Source: Vulcanimicrobiota bacterium (GTDB taxonomy: Bacteria; Vulcanimicrobiota; Vulcanimicrobiia; Vulcanimicrobiales; Vulcanimicrobiaceae). Taken from it: a stretch of DNA of 64,000 nucleotides. The notes beneath the pieces are model-generated. The model worked only from the letters and a program-made list of their open reading frames with translations. It did not search any database and was not told the origin of the DNA. This document shows positions 7,565-45,192 of the stretch, piece by piece. Location: the NCBI GenBank assembly GCA_963743445.1, contig CAVUPL010000003.1, positions 375,984 to 439,983 on the forward strand, read 5' to 3'. Position numbers and translations under genes: made by a program. Every line of letters begins with the position of its first letter. Position 1 is the first letter of the stretch.

Positions 7565-7693
7565 ATGAGGATTCGAAGCTTGGGCTACGCGCTAAGCAGC
7601 TGCGTGGCTGCGGCAATGCTCGCTGGCTGCGGCGGATCGCAGCCGCCGCTCGGCGCGCCGGGCGCGGGATTAGCGGGGCGAGGTGATGCGTAG
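7565..7693 (+). other. orphan lipoprotein signal-peptide cassette (42 codons)
   Basis: MRIRSLGYALSSCVAAAMLAGCGGSQPPLGAPGAGLAGRGDA*. It contains the conserved core TGCGGCGGATCGCAGCCGCC at 7628-7647 and stops 20 codons after the lipobox Cys. Confidence 0.6.
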
Positions 7694-8162
7694 CCGTAAG
7701 GCGGCGGCGGTGATGTTCATCATCCTGGTAATTTGCTCGCAGCGCACGACGTTTGCGACAAATAAATACCCCGTGCCGTTCTCGGATAAGCCCGATTGGC
7801 ATGGCTTCATCGTGAATCCTCCAGCGAGCTTCGCCGCGGTGCTTCATGCTCGCGTAATGGCGCATGCGCTTGTCCTTGTAACGTTGAATTCGAGTGGGAC
7901 AATCGATCAACATGAGGCGGCGACGCTGGCCTATCAGAATTTGTTCAGCAATACTTCGCGTCTTCCCGCTGGTGCCTTATATGTTGTCGTGATGGTATAT
8001 GGACCGCCAAACTTCATCGGCGCACATCCAGAATTCGCTTACGTCTTTAGGCGCGATTCAACCCCGAATGGCTGGGAACCACGGCTAGTATCAGAGTCCG
8101 AGGTGAAAGCCATTCAATGCGCTCTTGGAAACAAGATCTTGGTTGGACACGGAGCCTGTTAG
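7683..8162 (+). CDS. secreted hypothetical protein (159 aa)
   Basis: N-terminal signal-like MMRSRKAAAVMFIILVICSQRTTFA. Lower-GC ORF that overlaps the orphan cassette's stop. Confidence 0.5.
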   Translation: MMRSRKAAAVMFIILVICSQRTTFATNKYPVPFSDKPDWHGFIVNPPASFAAVLHARVMAHALVLVTLNSSGTIDQHEAATLAYQNLFSNTSRLPAGALYVVVMVYGPPNFIGAHPEFAYVFRRDSTPNGWEPRLVSESEVKAIQCALGNKILVGHGAC

Positions 8163-9363
8163 AGCATTGCGTCACGCGCCTACCATCTGCGCCGCTGCTG
8201 CATTGTTCGCGGGATGCGGCGGATCGCAGCCGCCGATCGGCGCTCCGGGCGCGATGCTGCAAAGCAACGCGATAGCGACGTCGTCCTATCAGGTTCTGCA
8301 CAACTTCGCTGGCGACCCGGACGGCGCGAACCCCTCCGCGAGCTTGATCGACGTGAACGGTACGTTCTACGGTACCACAGCTGAGGGCGGCACATACGGC
8401 CATGGCGGAACGGTCTTCAGCATCAATACGACCGGCAAAGAACGCGTGCTCTATAGCTTTGGCGGTGGCCACGATGGCAACGGCCCCGTCGCGAGCCTGA
8501 TCGACGTGAACGGCACGCTGTACGGCACAACGGAGTACGGGGGACTATGCGGCTGTGGGACCGTTTATAGCGTGAGCACTTCCGGCAGCGAAAAAGTGCT
8601 GTATGCTTTCAAGGGCGGCACCGACGGAGCCAATCCGACCGCCGGATTACTCAACATGAAGGGTACGCTCTACGGCACAACCCGTTCGGGAGGTGGCGGC
8701 AAGTGCAGCACATCCGGCGCTAGCGGTTGCGGAACCGTTTACAGCATTAGCACGACCGGCAAGGAGAAAGTGCTATACCACTTTGCTGGCCCCGACGGCG
8801 AATTCCCAACTGCGAGCTTGATCGAACTTAAGGGCAGGCTCTACGGCACTACATATTGGGGCGGCGGCGGTTTCGGCTATGGAACGGTCTTCAGCATCAC
8901 TACGTCTGGCAGGGAGCACGTGATTCACAGCTTCCAGGGCGACCCTGACGGCGCACAGCCCGACGCATCCCTGATTAAGGTTAAGGGCATGCTATACGGA
9001 ACGACGGAATATGGTGGCGCACAGTCCTACCAAGCAGGCCTAGGAACGGTTTTTAGCATCACCACGCGTGGCACGGAGCACGTGATTCACATCTTCCGCT
9101 ACGGCGATGGCGAATTTCCGACTGCGAGCTTGATCAACGTTAAGGGCACGCTCTACGGCACTACATATGGGGGCGGCACGCATTACGGCGGAACGGTCTT
9201 CAGCATCACTACGTCCGGCACGGAACACGTGATTCACAGCTTCGACGGCGGCTTAGCACACGGCCCCCAGGCGGGCGTGATCGACGTTGAAGGCACGCTC
9301 TACGGCACCACGTTTTGGGCCGGCACGTATAACGACGGAACGGTCTTCGCGTTGAGATTGTAA
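8125..9363 (+). CDS. GloVer-type (Gloeo_Verruco-like) tandem-repeat lipoprotein
   Basis: ICAAAALFAGCGGSQPPIGAPGAMLQS is followed by about 8 repeats of the ..ASLIDVNGTLYGTT..GG..GTVFSI...G.E.V(L/I)(Y/H)SF.. type. Ends GTVFALRL*. There is no ATG; TTG at 8125 or 8143 are candidate starts. Confidence 0.8.
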   Translation: METRSWLDTEPVRALRHAPTICAAAALFAGCGGSQPPIGAPGAMLQSNAIATSSYQVLHNFAGDPDGANPSASLIDVNGTFYGTTAEGGTYGHGGTVFSINTTGKERVLYSFGGGHDGNGPVASLIDVNGTLYGTTEYGGLCGCGTVYSVSTSGSEKVLYAFKGGTDGANPTAGLLNMKGTLYGTTRSGGGGKCSTSGASGCGTVYSISTTGKEKVLYHFAGPDGEFPTASLIELKGRLYGTTYWGGGGFGYGTVFSITTSGREHVIHSFQGDPDGAQPDASLIKVKGMLYGTTEYGGAQSYQAGLGTVFSITTRGTEHVIHIFRYGDGEFPTASLINVKGTLYGTTYGGGTHYGGTVFSITTSGTEHVIHSFDGGLAHGPQAGVIDVEGTLYGTTFWAGTYNDGTVFALRL

Positions 9364-9366
9364 TGC

Positions 9367-13580: not shown

Positions 13581-14600
13581 TTAATGCGGAGCGCGACTAA
13601 CGGCTATACCCTCCGGTGACGAAATCCCTCCGCTCGTCCCTTTAACGGGATAGCCGCCCGCCGGATAAATCCAGTAGGCAACGTCGTTACCGGGCAGGTC
13701 CGCTCCGATGAGCCTCTTCCCTCTCGGGTTTACCTTGCCGTTTCCAAACAACTTTGGGACCGCAAACTCAAGCACCCAGTCCGAGCCACTGAGTGTTGTT
13801 GAACCTTCGAGCCGTCCGCTTGAGCCTGACATCGAGAACTGGTGGATCGCGGTTGGACCTGAACCAAATCCCAGCGCAAGATACTCCCCGTCCCACGCGA
13901 GGCCGCCGGCAAATGGCGGAGTATCGTCCAGGGTCACGCTCGTGAGCGTACTGCCGCCTTTTGGAAGCTCGACGAGTTGGAAGGGACTACTTGGACCAAC
14001 GCCGTCGACGTAGAGGTTGCCCTCATTGTCATAGGCGGGATAGTAGAATAATGAGACGCTAGCATCTGCATACTGCGTCGGAGTACCCGATGCGTCTCGG
14101 TAAACCAAGACGCTGCTCGGCGCGCTACCCGGACTCGTATTGCTGGCAGCGAGATCGCCGGTCGTCGGATCGACGGCGCAAGCCGTGGGACTTCCGTATG
14201 GGTCGCTCAGAGCATTGATCGGGCTCGTGCCGCCGTGCTCGTACTCGAAGATCTGCGATGTTCGAGAGTTTGTGACGAACACATCGCCGTTTCTATCGGC
14301 ACACAAGCCGCGCGGCGCCTCAAAACCGGTCAACGTTCCTACCTGATGTTGGTATCCCCACGTGTAGACGGTCACCGTATTCGTACCGCCATTCGAGACG
14401 TAGAGCAAATCGTCACTCTTCGCTTCCGGCAGCATCCACGACCCGCCGTGCGAAGCGTGCGTTGCGATCGCGCTGCTTTGCTGCATAGCGCCCGGCGCGC
14501 CGGTCGGCGGCTGCGATCCGCCGCATCCTGCAAGCAATGCCGCGGCCGTGCAAATGGTAAGCGCGTACCTGGCGAGACGCGAACGCTTCATCTGCTTCAC
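13581..14600 (-). CDS. lipoprotein, beta-propeller-like paralog family A
   Basis: MKQMKRSRLARYALTICTAAALLAGCGGSQPPTGAPGAMQQSSAIATHASHGGSWMLPEAKSDDLLYVS.. Core 20-mer at 14506-14525. Confidence 0.8.
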   Translation of the reverse strand: MKQMKRSRLARYALTICTAAALLAGCGGSQPPTGAPGAMQQSSAIATHASHGGSWMLPEAKSDDLLYVSNGGTNTVTVYTWGYQHQVGTLTGFEAPRGLCADRNGDVFVTNSRTSQIFEYEHGGTSPINALSDPYGSPTACAVDPTTGDLAASNTSPGSAPSSVLVYRDASGTPTQYADASVSLFYYPAYDNEGNLYVDGVGPSSPFQLVELPKGGSTLTSVTLDDTPPFAGGLAWDGEYLALGFGSGPTAIHQFSMSGSSGRLEGSTTLSGSDWVLEFAVPKLFGNGKVNPRGKRLIGADLPGNDVAYWIYPAGGYPVKGTSGGISSPEGIAVSRAPH

Positions 14601-14603: not shown

Positions 14604-15572
14604 CTACTTTTGTGCCTTGCTCACCGTGACACCACTGAAACTTGACAACTTTGGCGCAAAATGCTGGAGCAGTTTGCGAGCCTTCTCCCCCGTTGGATAA
14701 TTCCAAAGGCCAATGTTGGGAGCTCTGGACTGGTCCCCGCTCGTGCCAAACGGAATGAGGATTGTGTTGTCATTGATCCAGGACTGGTAGGCATCCCGCA
14801 TCGCCCCTTTAAAGTGCGTTGTGCCCACGATGGTTGCCGTCGAGCCCGAAAGTTGCAAACGGTAGATCGCGACAGCGTTCCGCGGCTGGTGAAGGGCGAC
14901 CCCACCTTCAACGGTAACGTAGCTGCCGTCCCACTGGACCTGTCCCGGATTTTCAGTGATGCTGGGACTAACACTTATATTAATAAACGTGCTACTTCCG
15001 CTCGGAAGCTCAGTTAAGGCAAATTCATTGTCCGCATACCCGTCGACGAAGAGGTCGCTGTTGTTGTCGTAACCACAGTAAAAGGTCTCTATGTCGTCTT
15101 TGTAAATTGTCGGGGTGCCCTGCGCCTCCTGAAAAACTGCTAGGTTGCCTCCGCTTGAAGTGGAGAAGGCTACGGCCAGATTTCCGGTAGTTGGGTCGAT
15201 GGAGCATCCAATTGCGTTAGCGGCTCCTGGCAGGCTCAACGTTGCAATCGGAATTGTCCCGCCATGCTTGTATTCAAGCACGTTATCATCTGCTGTAAGA
15301 AACACATTGCCATTGCTATCCGAACAAGCGCCGTTAGCTCCAGCATCGATAGTTCCCAGTAACTTCCCCGCCGGATACGAGAGCACGTAAGAATGCTCGT
15401 TGCCAGCAGCGTAAATGAGGTCCCCATTGTGCTCAGCCTGCGATGTGATCGCGCGGCTTTGCGGCATCGCGCCCGGCACGCCGATCGGCGGCTGCGATCC
15501 GCCGCAGCCAAAAAGCATTGCCGCAGCCGCGCAGCTGCATAGCGTGGACCGGCTAAAATCTGAAGGCTTCAT
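14604..15572 (-). CDS. lipoprotein, beta-propeller-like paralog family A
   Basis: MKPSDFSRSTLCSCAAAAMLFGCGGSQPPIGVPGAMPQSRAITSQAEH.. Core at 15487-15506. A 3-nt gap separates it from the downstream gene. Confidence 0.8.
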   Translation of the reverse strand: MKPSDFSRSTLCSCAAAAMLFGCGGSQPPIGVPGAMPQSRAITSQAEHNGDLIYAAGNEHSYVLSYPAGKLLGTIDAGANGACSDSNGNVFLTADDNVLEYKHGGTIPIATLSLPGAANAIGCSIDPTTGNLAVAFSTSSGGNLAVFQEAQGTPTIYKDDIETFYCGYDNNSDLFVDGYADNEFALTELPSGSSTFINISVSPSITENPGQVQWDGSYVTVEGGVALHQPRNAVAIYRLQLSGSTATIVGTTHFKGAMRDAYQSWINDNTILIPFGTSGDQSRAPNIGLWNYPTGEKARKLLQHFAPKLSSFSGVTVSKAQK

Positions 15573-15605: not shown

Positions 15606-16559
15606 TCAGGGCAGCAGCGGAGGCGAGTACGCCGAACCCTCCGGGGCATAGAGCTCTTTATTGATTTGCCGCTTTGACGGCGTGATCGAACCAGGTGCAA
15701 ACTCAACGACAAGGTTGTTCCCGAAGTTGCTGACGTAGAGGCGCCCAATCTTGTTGACAGTTGCCGCCGCTGGTTGGTTCAAGCCTTCTGTGATCGTCTG
15801 ATACGGATGATTTTGCCCGGCAGCATACTTTTCCACATTGTTTTGCCGAATATTCGTCACATAGAGTGTGCCCTTGGCGTCCACGGTGATGCCGACCGGA
15901 GACATTACACTATCCGTGATCGTCCTGCTCGGTGTCTTACCACCCCGCGCATATACTTGAACATTTTGGGTCGAGCCACCCAAACCGTTGGAAACGTACA
16001 AGTTGCCGGAGTGATCGATCGCAATGCCTACCGGATAGATAAGACCGCGAGTTATAACGGCGTACGGCTTGGACGAGTCCTTCCTGTACTCGGTAACATT
16101 ACCGGAAAGGTTTGCGACCCAAAGGTTTCCTGTGCCATCAATTGCGCAGAACGCTGGCCCATTAATACCTTTCGTAATTATCTTAGACGGCTTCGTTTGC
16201 CCGGCGGCGTATTCCGAAACCCAGCCAGAACCACTCGCCGGCTCATTTGTTACATAAAGCGTGCCAGCGCGATCGACGCAATCGGCCGCCGGGTAATTCA
16301 GCCCATCGGTAATCGTTGCCTTAGGGGGTGGGTCCTTGATCGTTGGATCGTAAACATGGAGCTCGCTCGGGCCAAAGGCATTCACAACGTACAGCAGCGG
16401 GGTTGAAGCCGTGTCATGCTCGGCGTGCGTTGCGATCTGCGAGCTTTGCGGCATCGTGCCCGGCGCGCCGATCGGCGGCTGCGATCCGCCGCAGCCCGCG
16501 AGCACGGCGATAAGCGCAATAGGGCTAAGGCTTTTCGAAATGAGGCGTAAGGCGCTCAT
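15606..16559 (-). CDS. lipoprotein, NHL-like six-bladed beta-propeller (family B)
   Basis: LAGCGGSQPPIGAPGTMPQS is followed by repeated G(T/N)LYV(T/S/A)N blades (GTLYVTN, GNLWVAN, GNLYVSN, GTLYVTN, GRLYVSN). Core at 16474-16493. Confidence 0.8.
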   Translation of the reverse strand: MSALRLISKSLSPIALIAVLAGCGGSQPPIGAPGTMPQSSQIATHAEHDTASTPLLYVVNAFGPSELHVYDPTIKDPPPKATITDGLNYPAADCVDRAGTLYVTNEPASGSGWVSEYAAGQTKPSKIITKGINGPAFCAIDGTGNLWVANLSGNVTEYRKDSSKPYAVITRGLIYPVGIAIDHSGNLYVSNGLGGSTQNVQVYARGGKTPSRTITDSVMSPVGITVDAKGTLYVTNIRQNNVEKYAAGQNHPYQTITEGLNQPAAATVNKIGRLYVSNFGNNLVVEFAPGSITPSKRQINKELYAPEGSAYSPPLLP

Positions 16560-16569: not shown

Positions 16570-17592
16570 TTATTTGCGCGTATGCGAGGCGGGTGGGGCG
16601 ACGGAGACCGTTACGGCGTAAGAAGAATTAACAGCGATTGCCTTCTCAAAAACGGCGCCGGGATAGGTGAGAAGCACAACGTCATTTACCCCATCGGCGA
16701 CTATAACCGTTGAGCCTTTGATAAAGAAGCTGTCCGCCGTGTCATGGAGCCGTACCGTGCTCACGAAAACCCCACGGTTTCCCTCGATTTTATATCTAAA
16801 AAGAAGGCCATCGATCGAAGGGTCGTACGTCCCGTCCCCGAGAACCACGTATGTGCCGTCCCACTGAACGCCTATCGCGACTTTGATGGTTTTCTTTTGT
16901 TTAATCTCCGTAAATTGACGGCTGTCTTTCGCAAGCTCGGCCAGGCGATGTTTTGGCTCACCATAACCATGACTACGACTTTTCCCGTAACCCATAACGA
17001 AGAGGTCACTGTGGCTATCATAGCCGCAGTAGAACGCGAGAAAATAAGGCTTGTAAACTTTTGGAGTTCCCGTCGCTCCCGGATAGACGAGGACGGTGCT
17101 GCCGACGTCATTATCCCCGCCATTCGCGACAGCAAGATTCCCAGTGGCTGGGTCCACGGAACAACCCCGAGCCCCATTGTACGGGTCGCTTAACGTTGCG
17201 ATGGGCTCTTGGCCGCCGTGCGCGTACTCTACAATTTTTGAGTCATCACTAGACCTCGACCCTTGCGTCACGAAAATGTTCCCGTGTCGGTCGGAACATA
17301 GTTGCGAGGCGTAGACGCTAAGCTGCCCCACCGGGCTACCGCCTGGATACGTGAACACAGCAACAAAGTGACCGGAAGAATCCTGCCCTGGAGTGGCGAC
17401 ATAAAGCAAGTCCTCGCCCTTCGCTTCCGGCAGCATCCACGATCCGCTGCGATTGGCGTGGGTCGCGAGCGTGGAGGTTTGCGTCATCGCGCCTGGCGCG
17501 GCGATCGGCGGCTGCGATCCGCCGCACCCTGCAACCAATGCGGCAGCGAGGCTAATGCTGAAAGCGTAAAGACTGGTGGCGAAGGTTCTCAT
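16570..17592 (-). CDS. lipoprotein, beta-propeller-like paralog family A
   Basis: LVAGCGGSQPPIAAPGAMTQTSTLATHANRSGSWMLPEAKGEDLLYVA.. Core at 17507-17526. First gene of a four-gene minus-strand operon. Confidence 0.8.
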   Translation of the reverse strand: MRTFATSLYAFSISLAAALVAGCGGSQPPIAAPGAMTQTSTLATHANRSGSWMLPEAKGEDLLYVATPGQDSSGHFVAVFTYPGGSPVGQLSVYASQLCSDRHGNIFVTQGSRSSDDSKIVEYAHGGQEPIATLSDPYNGARGCSVDPATGNLAVANGGDNDVGSTVLVYPGATGTPKVYKPYFLAFYCGYDSHSDLFVMGYGKSRSHGYGEPKHRLAELAKDSRQFTEIKQKKTIKVAIGVQWDGTYVVLGDGTYDPSIDGLLFRYKIEGNRGVFVSTVRLHDTADSFFIKGSTVIVADGVNDVVLLTYPGAVFEKAIAVNSSYAVTVSVAPPASHTRK

Positions 17593-23769: not shown

Positions 23770-23800
23770 CTGCCCTGCTCCTCGCTCCATGAACGAATCA

Positions 23801-29011: not shown

Positions 29012-30060
29012 CTAATGAATCGCGATACCTTGGGGGAAATCGAGATCCGTCTGGTTTCCCTCAATCGCTTCCATGGGGCGCACGTTACCATTTGAGCCGG
29101 CCGCATAAACGGTAATACGGCTCACGCTGGCGATACCGCTGGCTGCATAGATATTGCCATCGCTATCAACCGCGATACCAAATGGGCTGACCAATCTCCT
29201 CCGACCGCCGTTAATCTCTCGGATGGGCGCGACATTACCGTTCGCGCCCGGAGCGTAAACTGTTACTCTGACGCTATTGTGGTTAGCTACGTACGTGTTT
29301 AGACTCGAGTCCAGCGCAATCTGCGTCGGCAAATCTATTTTCGTAAGGTCGCCCTGAATAATCCGCGTTGGTGCGGTGTCCCCCGTACTGCCCGCACGAT
29401 AAAAAGTTAGCCAGCCGGGATGTCCTGGCGGGGCGTTCGTAACTCCAACGTTTCCACTTGCATCTAACGCGAGGCAGTTGGGATGTTCGAGGAGGGTGTC
29501 CGACCCTTGAATCACCCCAATCGGTGAAACGTCGCCCCTCGAGCCCGGGGCGTATATGGTTACGGAACCGCTTCTCGATGGACCGCCGTCGATGTTTGAA
29601 ACATAAATGTCCGCATTGACCGAATCGACAGCGATCCCGGTTGGTGTGTTCAGCTCGGTGTTCCGGCCGCGGATGGTTTCGGTGGGCTTGACGTTTCCTG
29701 TAGCACCGGGCGCGTAGACGGTCACGGACGCAGGAAACGTGTTTACAACGTAGATATGACCACGCCCACCCACCGCGACATCGTGAGGGTGGTTCAGGCC
29801 GGTTTTGGAGCCGTGAATGTCTTGGATCGGTTTTACGTTGCCCGTCGCGCCCGAGGCGTAGACCGTTACCCTATATGGTTCACGTTGGTGACATAGAGGC
29901 ATGGACACGAAGCGCTGCGGTGCTTGCCTGAGAAGACGCGATCGGCATGCGCGGCGATTGCATGGCTTTGCGGCAGGATCGGCGGCTGCGATCCGCCGCA
30001 CGCTGCGAGCGATGCCACGGCGATGCTGACGCTAAGCACAAAGCGAGCACAGAAACTCAT
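29012..30060 (-). pseudogene. NHL-like beta-propeller lipoprotein (family B) with a frameshift after the signal peptide
   Basis: MSFCARFVLSVSIAVASLAACGGSQPPILPQSHAIAAHADR...LYVTNVNHIG* is read in one frame (30060 to 29866). The body (Y)RVTVYASGATGNVKP.. with six blades (IYVVN, IYVSN, VGVTN, TYVAN, IYAAS) lies in the -1 frame down to 29012. The shift is near 29868-29880. Confidence 0.65.
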
Positions 30061-31055: not shown

Positions 31056-31390
31056 TTGCCTTGCTCCAATTTCCACGCGTTCGCGTCGTCACGTTCTGCC
31101 CGCAAGGCCCTCGGGCAAGCGATGCAGTCTAAGCCCATCGTACCACCCAGGTCGCGATCTCGGAAGCCGCCTCGGCCCAAGGCTCCGTGGCGACGGCGCC
31201 GTTCGGTGGCTCTCGTCGCTGTATACTTGGCTCCGGTCGAAGCGTTCAGCGTAAGCGTGATCGCTCGGCTTTGCGGCATGGTGCCCGGCGCGCCGATTGG
31301 CGGCTGCGATTCGCCGCAGCCCGCGAGCAATGCAGCTGCGCAGCTTGTTAGCGCGTAACGGCTAAAAACCCAATCCGAGGGAAGGACCAT
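31052..31390 (-). other. signal-peptide cassette ORF with non-homologous Arg-rich tail (likely orphan)
   Basis: MVLPSDWVFSRYALTSCAAALLAGCGESQPPIGAPGTMPQSRAITLTLNAS.. then RATERRRRHGALGRGGFRDRD.. Core at 31299-31318. The tail overlaps the leader of the 31055 gene. Confidence 0.45.
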
Positions 31391-34897: not shown

Positions 34898-36058
34898 TCA
34901 GAATGCTTCGATGCCGTGTGGCGTACCCCAGCCGTCAGGATACGAGAAGCGCCCTCCGTAAATGCACGAGCTGTAACACTCGACCTTGTAAAGATGCTGC
35001 TGATGCTTCTTGCTCCAGAACGTGCGGCCGCCGTCTTGATTTCTTGCGTTGCCCGCGAGTCCGAACACACCGGAGATAAGGGCGGTCGGCAAGTTGTTGC
35101 CGCTGGCGTTTAACCAGCCCCCATCTGTCCCGAGGCCGTCAAAGCTGTCAAAAATGACAATGGAGTTAGCGACGATCGAGACGTCATCGGAGACGCGCCC
35201 GGAGCAACCTGTCGCGGTTTGCCACGGCGGTTTTGGAACGTCGGTAAAGCAACCTCCGCCGACATGCTTCCAAATCGTCTCAGTCCAGCCCCGTTTTCCA
35301 CCACCGCCCTGCGTTAGATACGTTCCGCCGACCGCCACGACGGTGTCAAAGTCCGCTGGAAAGACTTCGTCGGGCTGCGGCACCGCAGCCAGCCCGACAT
35401 ACGTGACCCCCTTCGCGTCGAAGTAGGATTTGTCAACGCAGCCGTAGCCAGTACACGCCCAATCGTTGCTCACGATGTGGGCGCCGAGCGAAACGGCGGT
35501 CTTCGCTGCGGTTTGAAGGTCGCTCTGATCCTCGCCATTTGCTTCGATCAGATCGATCGTACAGTTCGGACAAACCGCGGCTACCATCTCAACATCGCCA
35601 TCAATGAAGACCCCGAGGGGTTTGCGCGCCGGCGGATATTTTTTTTGCTGACCATACTCGTTAAACTTGTAGAGCTTCCCGCTCGGCAGCTGGAACTCGG
35701 AACGATACTCCGCTTGATCCGAGGCGACGTTGGGATTGTCGCATACTTCCACGAGCGCCACGATTTGGCCGTTGCCGTTGCTCATCGAGGGCAGATCGTA
35801 TGCGGCCTGAAGATTCGCAGGCGTCAGGCCGCGCGGAAGCGCTCGGCGGCTTTTGTCGCCGGGCCGTACCGTGAGCCACGGCCTAAGGATATTACCGTGG
35901 CTGCCGGTGCAGACATCGTACGATTCACGCGTAGCGCTCTGCTGCGACGCGCCCGGCACACTGATGGGCGTTTGCGATCCACCGCACCCCGCGAGCATTG
36001 CAACAGCGATGCTGATGCATACAGCGCGGTTCTCGAAATGCGACTGCTTCACTGCCAA
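34898..36058 (-). CDS. S53 (sedolisin)-like lipoprotein, catalytic residues substituted (predicted pseudo-peptidase)
   Basis: AMLAGCGGSQTPISVPGASQQS.. It aligns along its length with the 40310 protein. However, EIDLD becomes FIDGD, SGGDAG becomes AAVPQPDE, and CGTSVPTP becomes ASGNNLPT. Confidence 0.7.
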   Translation of the reverse strand: MAVKQSHFENRAVCISIAVAMLAGCGGSQTPISVPGASQQSATRESYDVCTGSHGNILRPWLTVRPGDKSRRALPRGLTPANLQAAYDLPSMSNGNGQIVALVEVCDNPNVASDQAEYRSEFQLPSGKLYKFNEYGQQKKYPPARKPLGVFIDGDVEMVAAVCPNCTIDLIEANGEDQSDLQTAAKTAVSLGAHIVSNDWACTGYGCVDKSYFDAKGVTYVGLAAVPQPDEVFPADFDTVVAVGGTYLTQGGGGKRGWTETIWKHVGGGCFTDVPKPPWQTATGCSGRVSDDVSIVANSIVIFDSFDGLGTDGGWLNASGNNLPTALISGVFGLAGNARNQDGGRTFWSKKHQQHLYKVECYSSCIYGGRFSYPDGWGTPHGIEAF

Positions 36059-37008
36059 CTAAAGACGACAAGACCGTTAGCGGTGTGGATTTTTTTCCAG
36101 CCTTGCCAACTCCGGTAGGCGTACGCGCTCGGCTCGACGTACGACGAACCGCCGCCGCCGCCACCGCCGCCGAGGCCGCCGTAGTAGTAGTCGCCACCGC
36201 CACCGCCGCCGCCACCAGCGCCATAGTAGCCGCCCCCGCCACCACCACCGCCGCCACTGTAGTTGTCGAACGGGCCGCCACCCTGCCCACCTCTGCCGCC
36301 AACCGCGAGACTGCCGGGGCTCCCGGAATCTCCGCCGTATGAGCTTGCGCCGCGTCCGCCGTCTCCCCCGGCACCACCGTCAAGCTGCGTGCCACCGCCA
36401 CCGCCGTATCCGCCGATGCCGTCGGATGAGCCGGTAGAGGAGCCGTAGCCATCGGTTCCGGCGCCCCCCACGCTACCGCCGCCTTTACCGCCCCTACCAT
36501 CACCATAGCTCGCATAGCTGTATCCACCTGTACCGCCTCCACCGCCGACAACGAGAACGCGATCGGTCAACTTATCACCACCTTCCCGTATATCGGAAGC
36601 TCCGCCGCCACCGTACGCGCACCCGCTGCAGTAAGACCCGCCACCGCCGCCATCAGCGCCGCCGTTGAAACCGCCGTCGTATTTCGATCCTTGGCCGCCG
36701 ACAAAGACCGCTAACTTTTCTCCAGGCGTAACCGGGATGATCGCGTATACGCGCCCACCGAAACCTTGGATGTCGCCGCCTCCCTGGGCGCCGACGGCAA
36801 TCACCTTAAGCTTCTTCACGCCGCCCGGAACGGTGAACATCTGTTCTGCGCCCGTGTAGTTGAACGTCTTGTGGTACGGAAGTCTTTCGCCCGCGCCGTT
36901 CACCGGCGGCGTCGCGCCGCTGCTGCCAGCGTTACCTCCGCAGCCCGAAAGCATTACAGCAGCCGCGAAAATGCATAGCGCGTAACGGCCAAAATCCAAG
37001 CTCTTCAT
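36049..37008 (-). CDS. glycine-rich domain lipoprotein (Gly_rich/PF12810-like)
   Basis: MKSLDFGRYALCIFAAAVMLSGCGG.. then FNYTGAEQMFTVPGGVKKLKVIAVGAQGGG.. followed by about 200 aa of G/Y/S low complexity. It overlaps the downstream S53-like gene by 10 nt. Confidence 0.75.
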   Translation of the reverse strand: MKSLDFGRYALCIFAAAVMLSGCGGNAGSSGATPPVNGAGERLPYHKTFNYTGAEQMFTVPGGVKKLKVIAVGAQGGGDIQGFGGRVYAIIPVTPGEKLAVFVGGQGSKYDGGFNGGADGGGGGSYCSGCAYGGGGASDIREGGDKLTDRVLVVGGGGGTGGYSYASYGDGRGGKGGGSVGGAGTDGYGSSTGSSDGIGGYGGGGGTQLDGGAGGDGGRGASSYGGDSGSPGSLAVGGRGGQGGGPFDNYSGGGGGGGGGYYGAGGGGGGGGDYYYGGLGGGGGGGGSSYVEPSAYAYRSWQGWKKIHTANGLVVFSWQ

Positions 37009-40309: not shown

Positions 40310-41491
40310 ATGACAAACTCAGATTTTGGCCGATATGCGTTAAGCATTTGCGGAGCCATTGTAATGCTTTCAGGCTGTGGCGGATCGCAGCCGCCCATCG
40401 GCGCGCCGGGCGCCTCGGAAAGTGCTGCTAACGTGGTACATATGATCCCGGAGTGGCAAGCGAAGGGCCTCGCGCGAGCCGTCTGCCAGCAGGACGTCGG
40501 CAAGCCGACGTGCCTGGCGCTGACCCAAAGAGGAATTCAGCCGGCTTGCTCCGGCTCGAAGTGCGGTTGGGCGCCGATCGATTTCCAAACCCGCTACAAA
40601 CTTCCGATATCAAAGGGATCGGGACAAATCGTCGCTGTCGTTGACGCAGGCGACAACCCCAACGCCGCCACCGACATCTCGGAGTACCGCTCCGAGTTTG
40701 GCTTAGGGACGGCGAACTTTTACAAGTACAATCAGGAAGGCCAACAGGGCAACTACCCGAGCTATACTGGCTGGAATGTTGAGATCGATCTCGACATCGA
40801 GATGGTATCGGCGTCCTGCCCGCTCTGCACGATATATCTGGTTGAAGCGAACAGCGCTGACAGCGACGATCTCGATACCGCCGAAGTCGAAGCGGTGAAG
40901 CTTGGCGCGCACATCGTCAGCAACAGCTGGATTTGTTACGGCTCGGTCAACTGCGTCGATAAACACGACTTTGACAAGAAGGGCGTCACCTATCTTGCCT
41001 CCGGCGGCGACGCCGGTTCCTACTATACGGGAGCTCCGGCCGCGCTCGACAGCGTCGCGGCGATCGGCGGCACGCAGCTATCGAAGAATGGCTCGCAATA
41101 CAGCGAGATCGTTTGGGCCGATAGCGGCGGTGGGTGCGCGATGGGCGTCAAGAAACCGAAGTGGCAACACGACAAGTATTGCACTTACCGGCTGACCAAT
41201 GATGCAGGGGCGCAAGCAGGGTGTGGTCCCGGCGTTGCAGAGTATGATAGCTACGAAGGCGGGTGGTTCGGAGTCTGCGGTACCAGCGTGCCGACACCAT
41301 TGCTAGCCGGTGTCTTCGCTCTCGCCGGTAACGCTACGGAACAAAATGGGGGGCGAACGTTCTGGAAGAAAGCGGACCACAAGTACCTTTACCTGATCAA
41401 CGGGGGTCAGGACCCAGAGTGCGCATACAGTCAAGGCCATTACACGACGTGCGCCGGCTGGGGATCGCCGAATGGCATCGGCGCCTTCTGA
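40310..41491 (+). CDS. S53 (sedolisin)-family serine-carboxyl peptidase lipoprotein
   Basis: MLSGCGGSQPPIGAPGASES.. IVAVVDAGDNP, WNVEIDLDIEMVSASCP (Glu/Asp), VSNSWICYG, LASGGDAG, CGTSVPTPLLAG (catalytic Ser). Confidence 0.8.
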   Translation: MTNSDFGRYALSICGAIVMLSGCGGSQPPIGAPGASESAANVVHMIPEWQAKGLARAVCQQDVGKPTCLALTQRGIQPACSGSKCGWAPIDFQTRYKLPISKGSGQIVAVVDAGDNPNAATDISEYRSEFGLGTANFYKYNQEGQQGNYPSYTGWNVEIDLDIEMVSASCPLCTIYLVEANSADSDDLDTAEVEAVKLGAHIVSNSWICYGSVNCVDKHDFDKKGVTYLASGGDAGSYYTGAPAALDSVAAIGGTQLSKNGSQYSEIVWADSGGGCAMGVKKPKWQHDKYCTYRLTNDAGAQAGCGPGVAEYDSYEGGWFGVCGTSVPTPLLAGVFALAGNATEQNGGRTFWKKADHKYLYLINGGQDPECAYSQGHYTTCAGWGSPNGIGAF

Positions 41492-41514: not shown

Positions 41515-43002
41515 ATGAAGACACTCGGCATCAGCCGCTATGCGTTCTGCGCAAGCATGAGCGTCGCTATGCTCGCAGGCTGCGGCGGCTCAGTTACTGG
41601 AGTAACTCCTCCGCATCCAAGCTCGCCGGCTTCGATCCAGCACATCGTGATCATGGTGCAGGAGAATCGCAGCTTCGACAATCTGTTTGCCGGCTTCCCC
41701 GGGGCCGATACTACGATGGAAGGGCTCTGCAAGCCCAAGCTTCCCAAGACAACATGGTGCAAAGTGGCTCACGACGTTCCACTCAAACCTATCAAGCTCG
41801 AGGACGGTCACGTTCCAGCAGGAAAGGACATCTGTCACAGCCACCAATGTTTCAAGATCGAATGCGACTTCGACAAGGCGACGAACGTTTGCCTAAATGA
41901 CGGCTTTGACCTCATCGATCTCGGTGAAGTTCAAACGGGCGTGCCAGCAAAGCTTTACCCATACGCATACGTCGAACGTTCGGAGACGAGGCCGTACTGG
42001 AACCTTGCCAAGCAATACACGCTTGCCGACAAGATGTTCTTCACTGCTACCGCGTCGAGCTTCATCGCGCATCAAGAACTGATCGCGGGAACGGTACGGC
42101 TCAGCGACGACAAGTCGCTGACCGACCAGCCCGACGCGACGCCGTGGGGATGCGATGCTCCCCCTGGGGCACAAACGCCGCTCTTATTCCGCGATGGCCG
42201 ATCGTTTGAGGCACCTCGTCCCCACAGCGCCGGGCCACCCTATTTGCCATTTCCGTGCTTTACGCAATACCGGACGATGGCCGACCTTTTCGATGCCGCA
42301 AACACGAGTTGGAAGTTCTATGTGTGGTGGATGTTTGGAGCGCACGCCGACTTTTCGGGTGATGTCTGGAATGGCTTTGACGCCATCAAGAAGATCGCGT
42401 GCCCGTCGAGACACTCGAACGCGAGTGGACAACCGGTCTGCAGCCGCGGAGAAGACTGGTCGCATATGAGCTTCCCAACCACAAACCTGTTCGCCGACAT
42501 CAAGGAGGGTAAACTGCCGCAGGTCTCTTGGGTCATCCCGACGCTTTGCGATTCCGACCACCCTGGGAGCGGTGCGAACCGAGGGCCGAAGTGGGTCACG
42601 GAAGTTGTCAATGCGATCGGCACCAGCCGGTATTGGAAGAACACGGCGATCATTCTCGTTTGGGACGACTGGGGAGGCTGGTACGATAACGTTCCGCCTC
42701 CGCAAATCAATTACACCAGCTTAGGATTCCGCGTTCCGATGATCGTGATATCGCCCTGGGCGAAGCCGCACTATATCTCCCATACGCAATATGATTTTGG
42801 CAGCATCTTGAAGTTCGTTGAACAAACTTTCGGATTAGGATCGCTCGGGACGAGCGATGCCACAGCAAACTCGATGGCCGATGTATTCGACTTTGCGCAA
42901 CGCCCGAACAGATTCGAGCCGGCCCCGTCGCCGCATGTGACCTCGTGCCCAGCCACATCTTTCTCCGAGTTTATTGAGGAGAACGGCGCGCCGCCAGGAT
43001 AA
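41515..43002 (+). CDS. phosphoesterase-family lipoprotein (PLC/AcpA type), paralog 3
   Basis: MKTLGISRYAFCASMSVAMLAGCGGS is the module's signal peptide without the SQPPIGAPG linker. IVIMVQENRSFDNLFAGFPGADT, QVSWVIPT..DSDHP, LVWDDWGGWYDN, LGFRVPMIVISPWAK. Confidence 0.85.
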   Translation: MKTLGISRYAFCASMSVAMLAGCGGSVTGVTPPHPSSPASIQHIVIMVQENRSFDNLFAGFPGADTTMEGLCKPKLPKTTWCKVAHDVPLKPIKLEDGHVPAGKDICHSHQCFKIECDFDKATNVCLNDGFDLIDLGEVQTGVPAKLYPYAYVERSETRPYWNLAKQYTLADKMFFTATASSFIAHQELIAGTVRLSDDKSLTDQPDATPWGCDAPPGAQTPLLFRDGRSFEAPRPHSAGPPYLPFPCFTQYRTMADLFDAANTSWKFYVWWMFGAHADFSGDVWNGFDAIKKIACPSRHSNASGQPVCSRGEDWSHMSFPTTNLFADIKEGKLPQVSWVIPTLCDSDHPGSGANRGPKWVTEVVNAIGTSRYWKNTAIILVWDDWGGWYDNVPPPQINYTSLGFRVPMIVISPWAKPHYISHTQYDFGSILKFVEQTFGLGSLGTSDATANSMADVFDFAQRPNRFEPAPSPHVTSCPATSFSEFIEENGAPPG

Positions 43003-43081
43003 CAGCGCAACCACGATGCAAAGCCGTGATGTCGTGCATGCCGAAGCGTTGCCATGGCGTTCGCGGAAGGAAGCAGAGCAG

Positions 43082-44062
43082 ATGAAGAGCTTGGGATTTG
43101 GCCAAACCCTAGGGATCGTAGCCGCGACGGCATTGCTGGCTGGATGCGGCGGATCGCAGCCGCCGATCGGCGCGCCGGGCGCGTTGCCGCAAAGCCGCGC
43201 GATTGCAACGCACGCCGAGCACGGCCGGTCAACGACCATGCAAGACATAAAGACTCAGAACTTACTCTACGTTGCTGACTATAGCGTAGGAGTTATCGTT
43301 TATACGTACCTGCCGTCGCACATGAAGTACGTTGGTCTTTTATCAGGGCCTTCGTACCCCAGGGGAGAGTGCGTTGACAAGGCACAGAACGTGTGGGTCA
43401 CAAACGGCGATTATTCGATTCTCAAGTACGCCCATGGCGGGACCAATCCAATTGCAATTTTGAGCGATCCTATTGCCATCCCGGAAGGCTGCGCCGTTGA
43501 CCCCACAACCGGAAACCTTGCGGCCGTCGGCGCTGGGGAAAACGGAATTGGACAAGTTGCGGTTTACAAAAAGGGCCGAGGTAGACCGGCCATCTACCAC
43601 GACCCTAGCTTCGGCGACATGTTCTCCTGCGGTTATGATAACAATGGAAACCTTTTTATCGACGGCATGGTCGTCCGCGGCTCCCTCCGTTTTACCGAGC
43701 TTCCAAAGGGGAGCGGCACATTCAACAGCATCACCCTCGATCAGTCATTCTTCGGTGAATGGGGCGGTGGCGTTCAGTGGGATGGTAGATACGTCGTAGT
43801 CGGAGACTTGCTTAAGGCGGTCGTCTATCAGTTCGATATCGACGGGAGCGCCGGAACCGAAGTCAGTTCGACACCTTTGGATGGCTCCGGTACCGTCTCT
43901 GAATTCTTCATCGACGGCGGTCGAATAATCGCGCCAAGTTCTTTCCCAGCCCGAGCGGGCTTTGTGAAGATTTATAACTATCCGGCGGGCGGGTCGGCTG
44001 AAAAGACACTCCATAACTTTAGCTCTCCAGACGGGGTCGTAGTCAGCCTCGGACGCCGATAG
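43082..44062 (+). CDS. lipoprotein, beta-propeller-like paralog family A
   Basis: MKSLGFGQTLGIVAATALLAGCGGSQPPIGAPGALPQSRAIATHAEHG.. Core at 43145-43164. ..GCAVDPTTGNLAAV.. is shared with the other family A members. Confidence 0.8.
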   Translation: MKSLGFGQTLGIVAATALLAGCGGSQPPIGAPGALPQSRAIATHAEHGRSTTMQDIKTQNLLYVADYSVGVIVYTYLPSHMKYVGLLSGPSYPRGECVDKAQNVWVTNGDYSILKYAHGGTNPIAILSDPIAIPEGCAVDPTTGNLAAVGAGENGIGQVAVYKKGRGRPAIYHDPSFGDMFSCGYDNNGNLFIDGMVVRGSLRFTELPKGSGTFNSITLDQSFFGEWGGGVQWDGRYVVVGDLLKAVVYQFDIDGSAGTEVSSTPLDGSGTVSEFFIDGGRIIAPSSFPARAGFVKIYNYPAGGSAEKTLHNFSSPDGVVVSLGRR

Positions 44063-44067
44063 ACGCG

Positions 44068-45192
44068 ATGAAGCGCACCTCCGCGGTTCTTCGCACCTCA
44101 GATTTCAACCGCTGCATGCTTGGCATTTGCGCAGCAGCTGCGATGCTCGCCGGGTGCGGCGGGTCGCAGCCGCCGACCGGTGCACCAGGCGCGATGCCGC
44201 AGAAGCAGGCGCCGCAAATGATGAGTGATCGCAGTGTCCACCTGAATGGGGCAAAGTGGTTTCTTTACGTTGGCCTGCAAAATGCGAGGTCTCTTGACGT
44301 GTATCGCCTTCACGGCAACAAGCCGATACGCAAATTCTCCGGCACGCTCGGGCCCGTAACGATTGCACTTGACCCTTGGAGCGACGTCTATACCACAGAT
44401 GACAATCCTAGCGGTGGAGCGATCACGGCCTATACCCCGGGCGCGCGCGCCGTGCTGCTTCAAATTGGTCCCTATGATTGGTGCCGCGGCCTTGCATTCG
44501 ACGCTGAGGGTCATCTCTACGCCGGTTGTTACGCGTCCGTGCGCGTGTATGCAGCGCGCAGCAGGAAACTCATTCGCATAATACGCCAAGGCGGGGTAAA
44601 CGAGGCGTTAGCTTTCGACTCGAAGGGAAATCTCTACGTCGCCGGTTTGGAAGGTTCGGGCCCACGGGCGCAGATTGAGGTCTTTCCGCCAGGCGCGAAG
44701 AAGCCGGCGCGCACGATCACGAAGGGAATTCAATATCCGTTCGCCCTGCTCGTCGACAAATCAAATGACCTCTTCGTTGCCAATTGTGGTTTCATTTATT
44801 GCCACTTGAGCAGCAGTAACCGTGGCTCAATCACAGAGTACGCATACGGAAGCGGTACGCCTCTGCGAACGATTACCGATGGCATCGACTCACCGCAAGC
44901 GATGGCATTCGGAAAGAAGAGTTTACTCTTCGTTGCGAATTATGCGTACTCGGGGAAAGGTTCCGTCACCATCTACTCATCCGGCACGAAGCCCATTCGA
45001 ACGATCACGGCGGGAATCCGCAATCCTGATGCGCTGGCGGTCGATCCGAGCGGCCATGTCTATGTTGCCAACTACGCATACGCCAAAGGCCACGACAGCA
45101 TTACCGTCTACACAGCGGACGGATCCCAGTTAGTGCGAACCATCCCCGAGGAGTTGAGTGGACCGCTCTCCCTCGGCATAGGCAAGGAGTAG
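44068..45192 (+). CDS. NHL-like beta-propeller lipoprotein (family B)
   Basis: AMLAGCGGSQPPTGAPGAMPQK.. with blades GHLYAGC, GNLYVAG, NDLFVAN, SLLFVAN, GHVYVAN. Starts 5 nt after the upstream gene. Confidence 0.8.
   Translation: MKRTSAVLRTSDFNRCMLGICAAAAMLAGCGGSQPPTGAPGAMPQKQAPQMMSDRSVHLNGAKWFLYVGLQNARSLDVYRLHGNKPIRKFSGTLGPVTIALDPWSDVYTTDDNPSGGAITAYTPGARAVLLQIGPYDWCRGLAFDAEGHLYAGCYASVRVYAARSRKLIRIIRQGGVNEALAFDSKGNLYVAGLEGSGPRAQIEVFPPGAKKPARTITKGIQYPFALLVDKSNDLFVANCGFIYCHLSSSNRGSITEYAYGSGTPLRTITDGIDSPQAMAFGKKSLLFVANYAYSGKGSVTIYSSGTKPIRTITAGIRNPDALAVDPSGHVYVANYAYAKGHDSITVYTADGSQLVRTIPEELSGPLSLGIGKE

Follow-up and report, generated by a model that had tools for sequence, protein, structure and literature searches.

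An N-terminal lipoprotein module that occurs 17 times in the window, the 64,000-nucleotide stretch of DNA analyzed here, is best read as lineage-specific to the Eremiobacterota (Baltobacteraceae/"Candidatus Cybelea"), a soil bacterial lineage. The window itself derives from a diderm member of this group. The module carries a Pro/Gly tether directly behind the lipobox Cys, and the silent positions of the tether DNA are frozen across dozens of species, for which protein function alone is an insufficient explanation. We give somewhat better than even chances to the reading that the module is a lineage-specific lipoprotein sorting or tether tag overlaid by a constraint at the nucleic acid level.

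The Module and Its Copies in the Window

The 20-mer TGCGGCGGATCGCAGCCGCC matched the window 16 times at three or fewer mismatches, against 0.03 matches expected, and a 17th copy with a 3-nt insertion (GGSSQPP) lies at 33988 on the minus strand. All 17 copies can be read in frame as ...LAG/C-GGSQPPIGAPGAMPQS. The original prediction had described them as 17 ORFs; the number of copies held, but they comprise 12 full genes, four bare stubs and one frameshifted gene (a pseudogene), and two of the starts it gave were slightly off (8216 for 8215 and 33985 for 33988). Its central observation, a lipobox module whose Pro/Gly linker is near-invariant and stands ahead of mature domains unrelated in sequence, was borne out.

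From 5' to 3', the module consists of a promoter and ribosome-binding region (in some copies), a signal peptide, the tether and a looser stretch. The first part, found in about 30% of the copies, is an ECF-sigma-type promoter, GCCGAAC-N16/17-CGTTCA, with the ribosome-binding region GGAGCGAGGAG; the motif GAAC-N15-18-CGT[TC] was present in 90 of 302 copies, its end mostly 81-92 nt upstream of the Cys codon. The second is a predicted type-II (lipoprotein) signal peptide, MKSxDFxRYAL, with a hydrophobic core and then LAG/C; at least 279 of 318 copies fit a PROSITE-type lipobox pattern, and 183 have LAGC. The third part, the tether GGSQPPIGAPGAMPQS, is uncharged and near-invariant (about 80-98% per position), is 17 residues long, and has a net charge of 0 over +1 to +16 in 242/318 copies, while the fourth, an AIATHAxRG stretch, is less strictly conserved. 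AlphaFold assigned pLDDT values of 45-54 to residues 1-55 and above 90 to the propeller, and its model of gene 43082..44062 shows residues 1-55 as disordered and a six-bladed propeller from about residue 60. The tether is thus best read as a predicted disordered linker ahead of many unrelated extracytoplasmic domains.

Family-A NHL-type six-bladed propellers stand behind the module in the genes at 13581..14591 (minus strand; tract 14475-14525, 48/51 matches), 14604..15572 (minus; tract 15456-15506, 50/51), 16570..17592 (minus; tract 17476-17526, 47/51), 30057..31076 (minus; module variant CGGPQSPIGAPGATP, tract 30939-30989) and 43082..44062 (plus; canonical module, tract 43145-43195, 50/51), and NHL/ScyE-like propellers in those at 15606..16559 (minus; tract 16443-16493, 50/51) and 44068..45192 (plus; tract 44155-44205). 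The NHL propeller gene at 29012..30060 (minus; tract 29950-30000, previously the 29981 copy) has a single frameshift about 40 codons past the Cys, and its tract is missing the 15 nt that encode GAPGA. GloVer-repeat proteins are encoded at 8125..9363 (TIGR03803; plus; tract 8215-8265, 49/51), where the n-region is atypical and all candidate start codons are TTG, and at 24167..25435 (minus; ECF-like promoter 25437-25461, tract 25298-25348, 27/27 over the first 27 nt). The gene at 32766..34073 (minus; 3-nt insertion, CGGSSQPP, Cys codon 34005-34007) encodes GloVer-type repeats, a call made from the repeat sequence and its relatives, not from an NCBIfam scan. The body of 40310..41491 (plus; tract 40376-40426) is S8/S53-like, and its paralog in 34898..36058 (minus; variant CGGSQTPISVPGAS, tract 35936-35986) is peptidase-like. 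The sole hit of the former was a sub-threshold match to Peptidase_S8, so that the S53 peptidase call of the original prediction was overstated; so was its count of five unrelated folds, both propeller families being NHL-type six-bladed, but the mature domains are indeed unrelated in sequence.

The four stubs are bare 5' cassettes. The one at 7565..7693 (plus; ECF-like promoter 7518-7541, signal peptide, tract 7628-7678) matches at 26/27 over the first 27 nt of the tract, loses the consensus after about +12 and then stops; that at 23614..23790 (minus; ECF-like promoter 23792-23816, signal peptide, tract 23653-23703, 50/51) continues past the tract with AIATHAAHARN and a stop; that at 28883..29005 (minus; GTG start, tract 28895-28945, 48/51) stops 20 codons past the Cys; and the frame of 31052..31390 (minus; CGESQPP variant, tract 31268-31318) stays open into the sequence upstream of the next module gene. 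No body remnant was seen for any of the four, including downstream of 7565..7693. The parts of the module are also separable, as had been proposed, since three further loci combine the signal peptide with a different linker: 22952..23401 (plus) has an ECF-like leader, an RYAL...AGC signal peptide and the linker AASSQSS before a truncated family-A propeller body; 36049..37008 (minus) has an ECF-like leader, the signal peptide MKSLDFGRYAL, the linker GGNAGSS (codons TGC GGA GGT, without GATC) and a Gly-rich body; and 41515..43002 (plus) has a module-type signal peptide, the linker GGSVTGV (codons GGC GGC TCA, again without GATC) and a PF04185 phosphoesterase body. The phosphoesterase at 26733-28190 does have an unrelated signal peptide, but the leader ascribed to it is reduced to a -35-side fragment.

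Bare cassettes with intact reading frames are common (41/265 copies), and these, together with the chimeric partial forms, the presence of both orientations inside one 38-kb region and the conserved 5' end of a surface-type lipoprotein family, would suit programmed shuffling, with a dedicated recombination system crossing over at the tract so that bodies exchange promoters and signal peptides, giving phase or antigenic variation like that of the Mycoplasma vsa/vsp/vpma loci. We hold this to be very improbable. No single expression site exists, since each copy comes with a separate start codon and signal peptide and about 30% with a separate promoter; the stubs break off at points between nt 23 and 65, without a constant crossover position; and a search of the window for a tyrosine or serine recombinase found none, the transposases being of the IS110 and IS3 types only. 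The Mycoplasma agalactiae system recombines at sites within the 5' UTR and has the Xer1 gene next to it (PMC2268961).

Distribution and Associated Domains

In public data, the module was found in 2,039 clusters at 50% identity (E<=1e-3), nearly always at residues 1-47, and the exact 38-mer occurs at 58 loci in 30 species-representative assemblies, all of them Eremiobacterota, a phylum with a diderm envelope (PMC6664022, PMC9758169). The bodies behind the module fall into 17 clusters of at least eight families, including NHL-type propellers, GloVer repeats, Gly-rich proteins, phosphoesterases and peptidase-like proteins. Related bodies elsewhere have dedicated sorting tags, i.e., the 'choice-of-anchor' of GloVer proteins, the PEP-CTERM of ScyF and the myxosortase-dependent phytase. 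The module is absent from at least nine other lipoproteins in the window, which speaks against the generic signal-peptide bias that the original prediction had named as its refutation. No model in Pfam, NCBIfam or Rfam covers the module and a literature search found no paper on it, in agreement with the earlier statement that the motif has no described counterpart. A PolB-type polymerase gene lies upstream of the module arrays at all 13 informative loci.

Probable Nucleotide-Level Constraint on the Tract

Where residues are identical, the same codon is used at a fraction of 0.82-0.85 in the tract, compared to 0.37 in the bodies and 0.43 in the signal peptide, which upholds the key claim that the block DNA is more conserved than the bodies at synonymous sites; between tract genes with unrelated bodies the fraction is still 0.82. 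The boundary of conservation is sharp at the Cys codon: in the window, codon fixation from Cys (0) through +16 far exceeds codon usage, whereas the signal-peptide codons vary synonymously, and third-position conservation is 0.92 in the tract and 0.55 in the signal peptide. Synonymous fixation is strongest in the first ~27 nt past the Cys codon and weaker out to ~51 nt. The tracts of the window use GGA in 15/16 cases against a background of 0.20 (P=6e-10), TCG in 16/16 against 0.33, and AGC in 9/9; a sample collected independently of codon choice gave GGA in 141/149 and TCG in 147/155.

Selection at the level of translation would fix the tether codons for decoding speed just past the signal peptide, for instance as fast common codons or as a pause programmed at QPPIG to serve membrane targeting. 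Other bacteria have been reported to use codons unevenly in their signal peptides. Here, 14 of the 16 degenerate codons in the consensus are those that the genome uses most for their residue, while the signal-peptide consensus leans toward non-top codons (GCA, GCA, GGG). However, the codon with the strongest fixation, GGA, is rare (95% vs. 15-20% usage), CAA stands at 78% vs. 42-48% usage, codons are not fixed at conserved residues in the bodies of these genes (0.37-0.47), and a third-position identity of 92% far exceeds codon bias, as the genome's top codons reach just 0.4-0.7. We consider this explanation improbable, though translational selection may contribute because most tract codons are the genome's commonest.

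Neutral concerted evolution, in which short-patch gene conversion or recombination among paralogs keeps the tract uniform and the peptide alone is selected, is a stronger contender but in our judgment still unlikely; it may include horizontal exchange between species on mobile elements and assumes no function at the nucleic acid level. The copies are many per genome, clustered and on both strands, many IS elements and a PolB-type element lie nearby, the stubs and chimeric forms are evidence of 5' cassette rearrangement, and the star-like pattern of variants is also compatible with a mutation-conversion balance. Yet tract identity is no higher within genomes than between them (0.806 vs. 0.807; 526/1000 permutations reach the observed difference), so that, of the two causes offered by the original prediction, ordinary gene conversion within the genome is not supported and a nucleotide-level force is favored. 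The 48-nt consensus is identical across 10 species despite orthologs being near synonymous saturation (a same-codon score of just 0.45 for an ortholog at 81% amino acid identity), and, as we read neutral multigene-family theory, under unbiased conversion the consensus drifts at the neutral rate. Tract variants are scattered without regard to body relatedness, and no shared variant blocks were seen. The neighboring signal-peptide codons are not homogenized, and therefore conversion would have to act on an island of 27-50 nt alone, a length at about the lower homology limit of RecA-type exchange or under it. Interspecies gene flow combined with very short-patch conversion retains a residual likelihood as homogenizer of the tract.

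The GC-rich tract is in part complementary to itself (CGGCGG-N7-CCGCCG; TGCGGCG pairing with TGCCGCA), which would suit a conserved hairpin in the mRNA, or a segment of a riboswitch-like leader, controlling translation or stability. We find such a structure barely credible: folding energies do not improve on dinucleotide shuffles (z = -0.4 to +1.0) and folds differ among copies, the variants in 311 copies disrupt the predicted pairs with compensatory changes essentially absent, and the window contains no Rfam family. Conservation of the tract is left unexplained by codon bias, by recent duplication, by an RNA hairpin and by ordinary gene conversion within genomes.

Synonymous sites are held to one cross-species consensus, and therefore a second constraint acts on the DNA or RNA itself; we favor a restoring force on the nucleotide sequence. 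The sole lead on its agent is three GATC sites, which are retained in 270/284, 243/271 and 75/92 copies vs. 7-37% expected and account for part of the fixed tract positions only. Our leading guess is a protein- or methylation-dependent DNA switch. Orphan or antisense copies of the tract were not found in 883 kb.

A Proposed Sorting Tag and Its Relation to Known Systems

The sorting-tag reading builds on the lipoprotein-signal features, the disorder, the restriction to a subset of lipoproteins and the many body types. Processing by Lgt and LspA would come first and leave an acylated Cys with the invariant tether, which one dedicated partner might then read, possibly a factor for sorting or surface translocation, or a pore in the outer membrane threaded by the tether. 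Read in this way, the tether would be an address tag, comparable in role to C-terminal tags, e.g., PEP-CTERM, on homologous domains in other phyla, and the constraint on the tract DNA or RNA would add a second layer to what the peptide requires. The role in surface export or as a protease site suggested by the original prediction would be plausible in a diderm phylum. The window yielded no candidate sorting gene. To our knowledge, an invariance as extreme as that of the tether has no precedent as a sorting requirement.

The closest parallel in position is the lipoprotein export signal (LES) of Bacteroidota, 4-5 residues at +2 to +6 with the acidic pattern C-X-K-(D/E)2-X, conserved at 16-72% per position (PMC5080379, Lauber et al., 2016). 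In both cases a short peptide directly past the lipidated Cys marks some of the lipoproteins of a diderm phylum, many unrelated proteins that mostly act in hydrolysis or binding, with other lipoproteins of the organism lacking the tag; in contrast to the LES, the tag described here has 16 or more residues, is uncharged and Pro/Gly-rich, is conserved at ~80-98% per position and has frozen synonymous sites. The Mycoplasma vsp/vpma/vsa loci are likewise multigene lipoprotein families with a DNA-conserved 5' UTR and signal-peptide region, unrelated mature regions and clustered genes in both orientations, but they have a single promoter, recombination sites in the 5' UTR and switching by an adjacent Xer1/HvsR recombinase (PMC2268961). 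Conservation of the module peaks past the Cys codon, not in the 5' UTR or signal peptide, its genes have their own start codons and often their own promoters with no recombinase adjoining the arrays, and its consensus is common to about 30 species.

PEP-CTERM/exosortase, MYXO-CTERM/myxosortase, the T9SS CTD and 'choice-of-anchor' resemble the module in that one short lineage-specific tag is borne by many unrelated secreted domains, and they share the body families GloVer (TIGR03803), ScyE/ScyF-like NHL and phytase-like; those tags, however, are C-terminal and cleaved by a known partner enzyme, whereas the module is N-terminal and fused to the lipobox. The disordered N-terminal tethers of Borrelia surface lipoproteins, like the threaded linker of RcsF in E. 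coli, are flexible, and the proteins depend on them to reach the outer membrane or cross it. The module also has a linker past the acylated Cys, and its predicted disorder is consistent with such flexibility, but in those proteins length and disorder outweigh exact sequence, while the sequence of the module is almost invariant. On the DNA side, E. coli agn43 and pap are Dam-dependent phase switches with GATC in regulatory DNA overlapping an OxyR or Lrp site. The module similarly clusters GATC at the start of putative surface-protein genes and keeps two to three of them through otherwise unfavored codons; its GATC sites differ in lying 70-130 nt inside the coding sequence, where positions outside GATC are fixed as well.

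Module copies in the window and their lipoprotein signal

The 20-mer TGCGGCGGATCGCAGCCGCC matched the window 16 times at up to three mismatches, where 0.03 matches were expected, and a 17th module copy at 33988 (-) carries a 3-nt insertion. All 17 copies read in frame as the module, i.e., a signal peptide ending in LAG|C followed by the tether GGSQPPIGAPGAMPQS, often continued by AIATHA. The original prediction of 17 module ORFs therefore stood with respect to reading frame, but only 12 of the copies head full-length genes. Four are stubs, bare 5′ cassettes with no remnant of a body (the mature domain behind the module) downstream (7565-7693, 23614-23790, 28883-29005, and 31052-31390), and the 29981 copy lies in an NHL-propeller gene with one frameshift (29012-30060). 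In the nucleotide alignment conservation was highest between the Cys codon and about +50 nt, third codon positions included, as had been proposed from inspection of the DNA. This tract of conserved nucleotides, counted from the Cys codon as codon 0, is quasi-palindromic (GGCGCGCC, CGATCG, and CGGCGG-N7-CCGCCG), and its reverse strand reads ...GAPIGGC|DPPQP..., a mimic of a lipobox. The reverse-strand ORFs carrying the mimic, at 15415-15588, 28803-29015, 29924-30073, 31257-31358, and 33925-34830 (all +), are very likely a by-product and no real genes.

Across 318 copies, at least 279 matched the PROSITE PS51257-type lipobox core pattern, 295 had K/R upstream of the h-region, and the lipobox was spelled LAGC in 183 and LAAC in 32; in most window copies the Cys lies 20-22 residues from the start, within the 15-35 residues of the criterion. 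By these sequence features the module contains a type II signal peptide and its carriers are predicted lipoproteins. The tether (+1 to +16, GGSQPPIGAPGAMPQS) had a net charge of zero in 242 of the 318 copies. Residues 1-55 were of low confidence and non-globular in the AlphaFold model, with the propeller beginning at about residue 60, so the module would be a flexible tether outside the fold.

At least nine further lipobox proteins encoded in the window are without this linker, which argues against a generic signal peptide bias, and those outside the module island (49234, 54310, 58983, and 61033) have ordinary, unrelated signal peptides. The parts of the module proved separable, as had been claimed: 22952, 36049, and 41515 keep its RYAL...AGC signal peptide with different linkers. 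The island also holds three PF04185 phosphoesterase paralogs, 26733-28190 (-), 37406-38827 (+), and 41419-43002 (+), whose N-termini all differ, two having unrelated lipoprotein signal peptides and one a module-type signal peptide without the tether; a phosphoesterase homolog in L054, a locus from outside the window, has the full module. In addition, 38846-40102 (-) encodes a GloVer-like lipoprotein with an unrelated signal peptide (MRDGLKSFAAVILFVVVAGC) and linker (EGGSTQLSPPPAG), and its relatives lie near module genes in many of the loci from other genomes. The same body type thus occurs both with and without the module.

Bodies behind the module

Tandem GloVer repeats of about 50 residues (TIGR03803) scored above the NCBIfam cut-off of 44 bits in 8125-9363 (254 bits) and 24167-25435 (208 bits), an assignment that applies to the bodies only; 32766-34073 has the same type of repeats as judged by its sequence and relatives, and 7 of 75 module proteins taken from the database matched TIGR03803. 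NHL/ScyE-like propellers are encoded at 15606-16559, 44068-45192, and the frameshifted 29012-30060. A further group of bodies, family A (13581-14591, 14604-15572, 16570-17592, 30057-31076, and 43082-44062), gave sequence matches to Pizza6 and PknD, and its confident AlphaFold model (pTM 0.81) gave structure matches to the same two proteins. By sequence and predicted structure, family A is an NHL-type six-bladed propeller. Two separate propeller families had been expected; since family A is also of this type, the two form a single fold class. The mutually related peptidase-like bodies 34898-36058 and 40310-41491 had been read as S53 peptidases, a tentative assignment, as they showed only a sub-threshold S8 match and no PDB sequence match.

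The 238 module genes collected from 137 loci of other genomes and metagenomes formed 17 body clusters, which extended the range of bodies to Gly-rich proteins, PF04185 phosphoesterases, and a lactonase-type seven-bladed propeller, among others. A Pfam/NCBIfam census of the 75 database proteins, which were ranked by module score alone, agreed with this clustering, and no model covered the N-terminus in any of the 75. Related bodies in other phyla come with dedicated C-terminal sorting tags, namely the GloVer 'choice-of-anchor', the PEP-CTERM of ScyF, and the tag of the myxosortase-dependent phytase.

Distribution of the module and the host envelope

The exact 38-mer TGCGGCGGATCGCAGCCGCCGATCGGCGCGCCGGGCGC was found at 58 loci in 30 species-representative assemblies, labeled Candidatus Cybelea, Baltobacteraceae, 'Vulcanimicrobiota', or Eremiobacteraeota MAGs. 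All 30 belong to the Eremiobacterota, which are abundant in peat, tundra, and acidic soils and barely cultured. A search profile built from the 17 module N-termini matched 709 proteins in a word-indexed database. When 1.84 billion representatives were searched exhaustively, it matched 2,039 clusters at E<=1e-3, of which 716 reached E<=1e-10, the module almost always lying within residues 1-47. A few database proteins, P0121 (271 aa), P0151 (414 aa, module at 321-347), and P0194 (669 aa), have two module stretches or an internal one, and probably arose where tandem cassettes were read through or gene calls were fused. Pfam and NCBIfam had no curated family for the module in the window proteins and the 75 database proteins, and a literature search on GGSQPP returned irrelevant matches only. 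The phylum is diderm: its genomes encode LPS synthesis and BamA (PMC6664022), and electron microscopy of the only isolate showed an inner membrane, thin peptidoglycan, and an LPS-covered outer membrane (PMC9758169).

Synonymous sites are conserved from the Cys codon onward

In the window copies, codons 0 to +16 are fixed beyond what codon usage predicts (GGA in 15/16 against 0.20, TCG in 16/16 against 0.33), and the codons of Gly(-1) vary (GGC 8, GGA 3, GGG 4). This fixation was repeated in 86 extra copies from other species. A metagenome scan with degenerate peptide patterns, which ignore codon choice, yielded 158 distinct copies with GGA in 141/149, TCG in 147/155, CAG in 149/155, CCG in 147/150, and CAA(+15) in 99/127; the signal peptide of the same set varied, with Val(-8) codons split 24/20/19/17 and Gly(-1) codons 69/33/16/8. 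Third positions were conserved at 0.92 in codons 0-8 and at 0.55 in the signal peptide. Where two genes shared a residue, they used the same codon for it in a fraction of 0.82-0.85 in the tract at any degree of body divergence (10,062 gene pairs) and of 0.82 even between unrelated bodies (18,028 pairs); diverged bodies gave 0.37-0.47 and the signal peptide gave 0.43, which confirms the anticipated excess of synonymous-site identity in the module. The conservation of the tract is real and its boundary at the Cys codon is sharp.

Several causes were considered and rejected. Codon bias does not account for the pattern, since the best-fixed codon, GGA, is a rare one and conserved residues of the bodies show no codon fixation; recent duplication fails because synonymous sites in the signal peptides and bodies of the same genes are saturated. 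Ascertainment bias from the exact 38-mer search was controlled by the codon-blind peptide-pattern scan, and a further control dropped the best-matching copy of each locus.

What keeps the tract uniform

Tract identity was 0.806 within and 0.807 between assemblies (526 of 1000 permutations gave a difference at least as large as that observed), and the consensus of the first 48 nt was identical in 10 assemblies. A sulfatase ortholog with 81% amino-acid identity used the same codons at only 45% of identical residues; the tract-bearing species are near synonymous saturation. Each tract copy differs from the common consensus by 0-3 changes, variants occur together at about the rate predicted under independence, carriers of any synonymous variant have bodies no more related than random pairs, and no variants were shared in blocks among the copies compared. 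This star-like pattern points to a strong restoring force towards one sequence. Of the two causes put forward in the original prediction, within-genome gene conversion (or genome-specific concerted evolution) is not supported, given that identity within genomes equals that between them, with no genome-specific consensus and no variant blocks. The second, purifying selection on the nucleotides, fits the pattern. Conversion in very short patches combined with gene flow between species might also keep the tract uniform across assemblies, and we regard it as an exotic alternative.

If selection acts on the nucleotides, several readers of the tract can be considered. An RNA hairpin was rejected: folding z-scores ranged from -0.4 to +1.0 against shuffled sequences, variants break predicted pairs without compensation, and Rfam gave no match for a structured cis-regulatory RNA. 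Nor was a trans-acting antisense copy found: the 883 kb around module genes contained no orphan or antisense copy of the tract, and of the 363 nucleotide-level matches there, 359 follow a signal peptide in frame. One lead came from GATC sites. A rare GGA codon and a Ser encoded only by TCN together spell GGATCG, and the module has two more GATC sites, in CCG-ATC and GCG-ATC-GCA. The three are kept in 270/284, 243/271, and 75/92 copies against 7-37% expected, and GATC is otherwise of ordinary frequency in these genomes (observed/expected 1.06). Clustered GATC sites underlie the Dam-dependent switches of E. coli surface proteins. GATC can be at most part of the answer, since tract positions outside these sites are fixed too. 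We tentatively suggest that the first 9-17 codons after the Cys (27-51 nt) might be dual-coding, specifying both the tether and a cis-acting nucleic-acid site common to the family of more than 2,000 gene clusters, although we consider this rather doubtful at present. Such a site could possibly be a GATC-methylation-sensitive operator acting as an on/off switch for each surface lipoprotein gene, a target that all copies present to a single regulatory RNA or protein, or the sequence recognized by the PolB-type element that lies upstream of many arrays.

The upstream leader, stubs, and turnover

Upstream of the start codon, GAAC-N15-18-CGT[TC] was present in 90 of 302 copies (~30%), typically as GCGCCGAAC-N16/17-CCGTTCA, with its end mostly falling 81-92 nt upstream of the Cys codon, or about 20-25 nt ahead of the ATG; a ribosome-binding region, GGAGCGAGGAGCAAGG, lies 3′ of it. 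An AAC (-35)/CGT (-10) architecture is that of ECF-sigma promoters, and with its AAC/CGT boxes, typical spacing of 16-17 nt, and preferred distance to the start codon the element is a putative promoter of this class. The spacer is also alike between copies, so the whole 5′ cassette of about 200 nt is homologous DNA; it is the only part of the genes that matched dozens of other loci, at about 80% identity. The nearest of the loci compared with the window reached at best 72-92% over 1-2 kb. Many copies have a second conserved box, (C)TGGGA(A)CTGAG, some 15-25 nt 5′ of the GCCGAAC box (e.g., window 7495-7510, 25465-25480, and 40240-40255), a possible additional -35-like element or regulator site.

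Among scorable copies, 41 of 265 (~15%) stop within 70 codons of the Cys. These stubs consist of promoter, start codon, signal peptide, and tract, followed by a stop after 17-66 residues; their reading frames are intact, 38 of the 41 keep the start codon and signal peptide, and their first 27 nt match the consensus at 0.966, against 0.955 in full genes. They could be leftovers of rearrangement or expressed small lipopeptides. Many short database matches are truncated or frameshifted genes. The module family turns over quickly, as expected of surface proteins. The breakpoints of stubs and chimeras fall anywhere between nt 23 and 65, peaking broadly at 42-50, which excludes a fixed recombination crossover.

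A PolB gene and IS elements accompany the module array

The ORFs 1112-2722 and 3974-5842 (+) are halves of one gene of about 1,015 aa with exonuclease motifs (FDCET, NFPFD, and YIDYNRRD), polymerase motifs (DTDS and KRYA), and a C-terminal HTH. Its intact homologs often match Pfam PF03175 (DNA_pol_B_2), the protein-primed type of PolB. The gene has 2,742 relatives, with only Cybelea among those named, forms at least three subfamilies, and is present in at least two copies in some genomes. In all 13 informative loci the gene immediately precedes the module array on the same strand, with 196-2,829 nt between its stop and the Cys codon; homologs were located in L078 (1164-4199) and L103 (511-4239), and further in L010, L016, L018, L024, L031, L043, L050, L074, L125, and L137. 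The gene may represent a mobile element that replicates itself and is linked to the module arrays. In the window the gene is split by one copy (2616-4084) of an inverted, 100% identical IS110-family pair of 1,469 nt, the other copy being at 9454-10922 and the DEDD transposase genes at 2875-4029 and 9509-10663. The 5.4 kb between the copies hold the PolB half 3974-5842, the ORF 5850-7058, the 7565 stub, and the 8125 GloVer gene. Similarly, an inverted, 100% identical IS3-family pair of 1,240 nt with an rve integrase core (12084-13323 and 17776-19015) flanks four tandem module genes (13581-17592) in a composite-transposon-like layout.

Significance and comparison with known systems

To our knowledge, nothing is known of how the Eremiobacterota cell surface is constructed, and the route of lipoproteins to the surface of diderm cells is an open question outside Bacteroidota and spirochetes. 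A single tag on thousands of lipoproteins makes it possible to list, straight from metagenomes, the candidates for a surface or secreted proteome, and would predict a dedicated sorting or processing partner; no sorting gene, sigma factor, or recombinase was found within the window. It is in itself unusual for the silent sites of a short coding tract to be frozen across species within such sharp limits, and if a reader at the DNA or RNA level exists, the tract would be a clear example from nature of codons that carry a regulatory code for a whole gene family.

The 5′ end conserved at the DNA level resembles that of the Mycoplasma vsp/vpma genes. In contrast to those systems, there is no single promoter with silent copies lacking one, and each of the 17 window copies has a start codon and a signal peptide of its own. 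The 5′-UTR recombination sites, adjacent recombinase, and fixed crossover of vsp/vpma/vsa are also absent; the transposases of IS110 (DEDD) and IS3 (rve) are the only such enzymes encoded in the window, which has neither an integrase nor an invertase. Most similar in position and logic is the lipoprotein export signal (LES) of Bacteroidota, which occupies +2 to +6, the module peptide beginning at +1. However, the LES is defined as acidic, K-(D/E)2 or a polar residue followed by D/E residues (PMC5080379), and the module lacks this composition and is far longer and more conserved. By analogy, we classify the module as a probable lineage-specific lipoprotein address tag with an added constraint at the nucleotide level.
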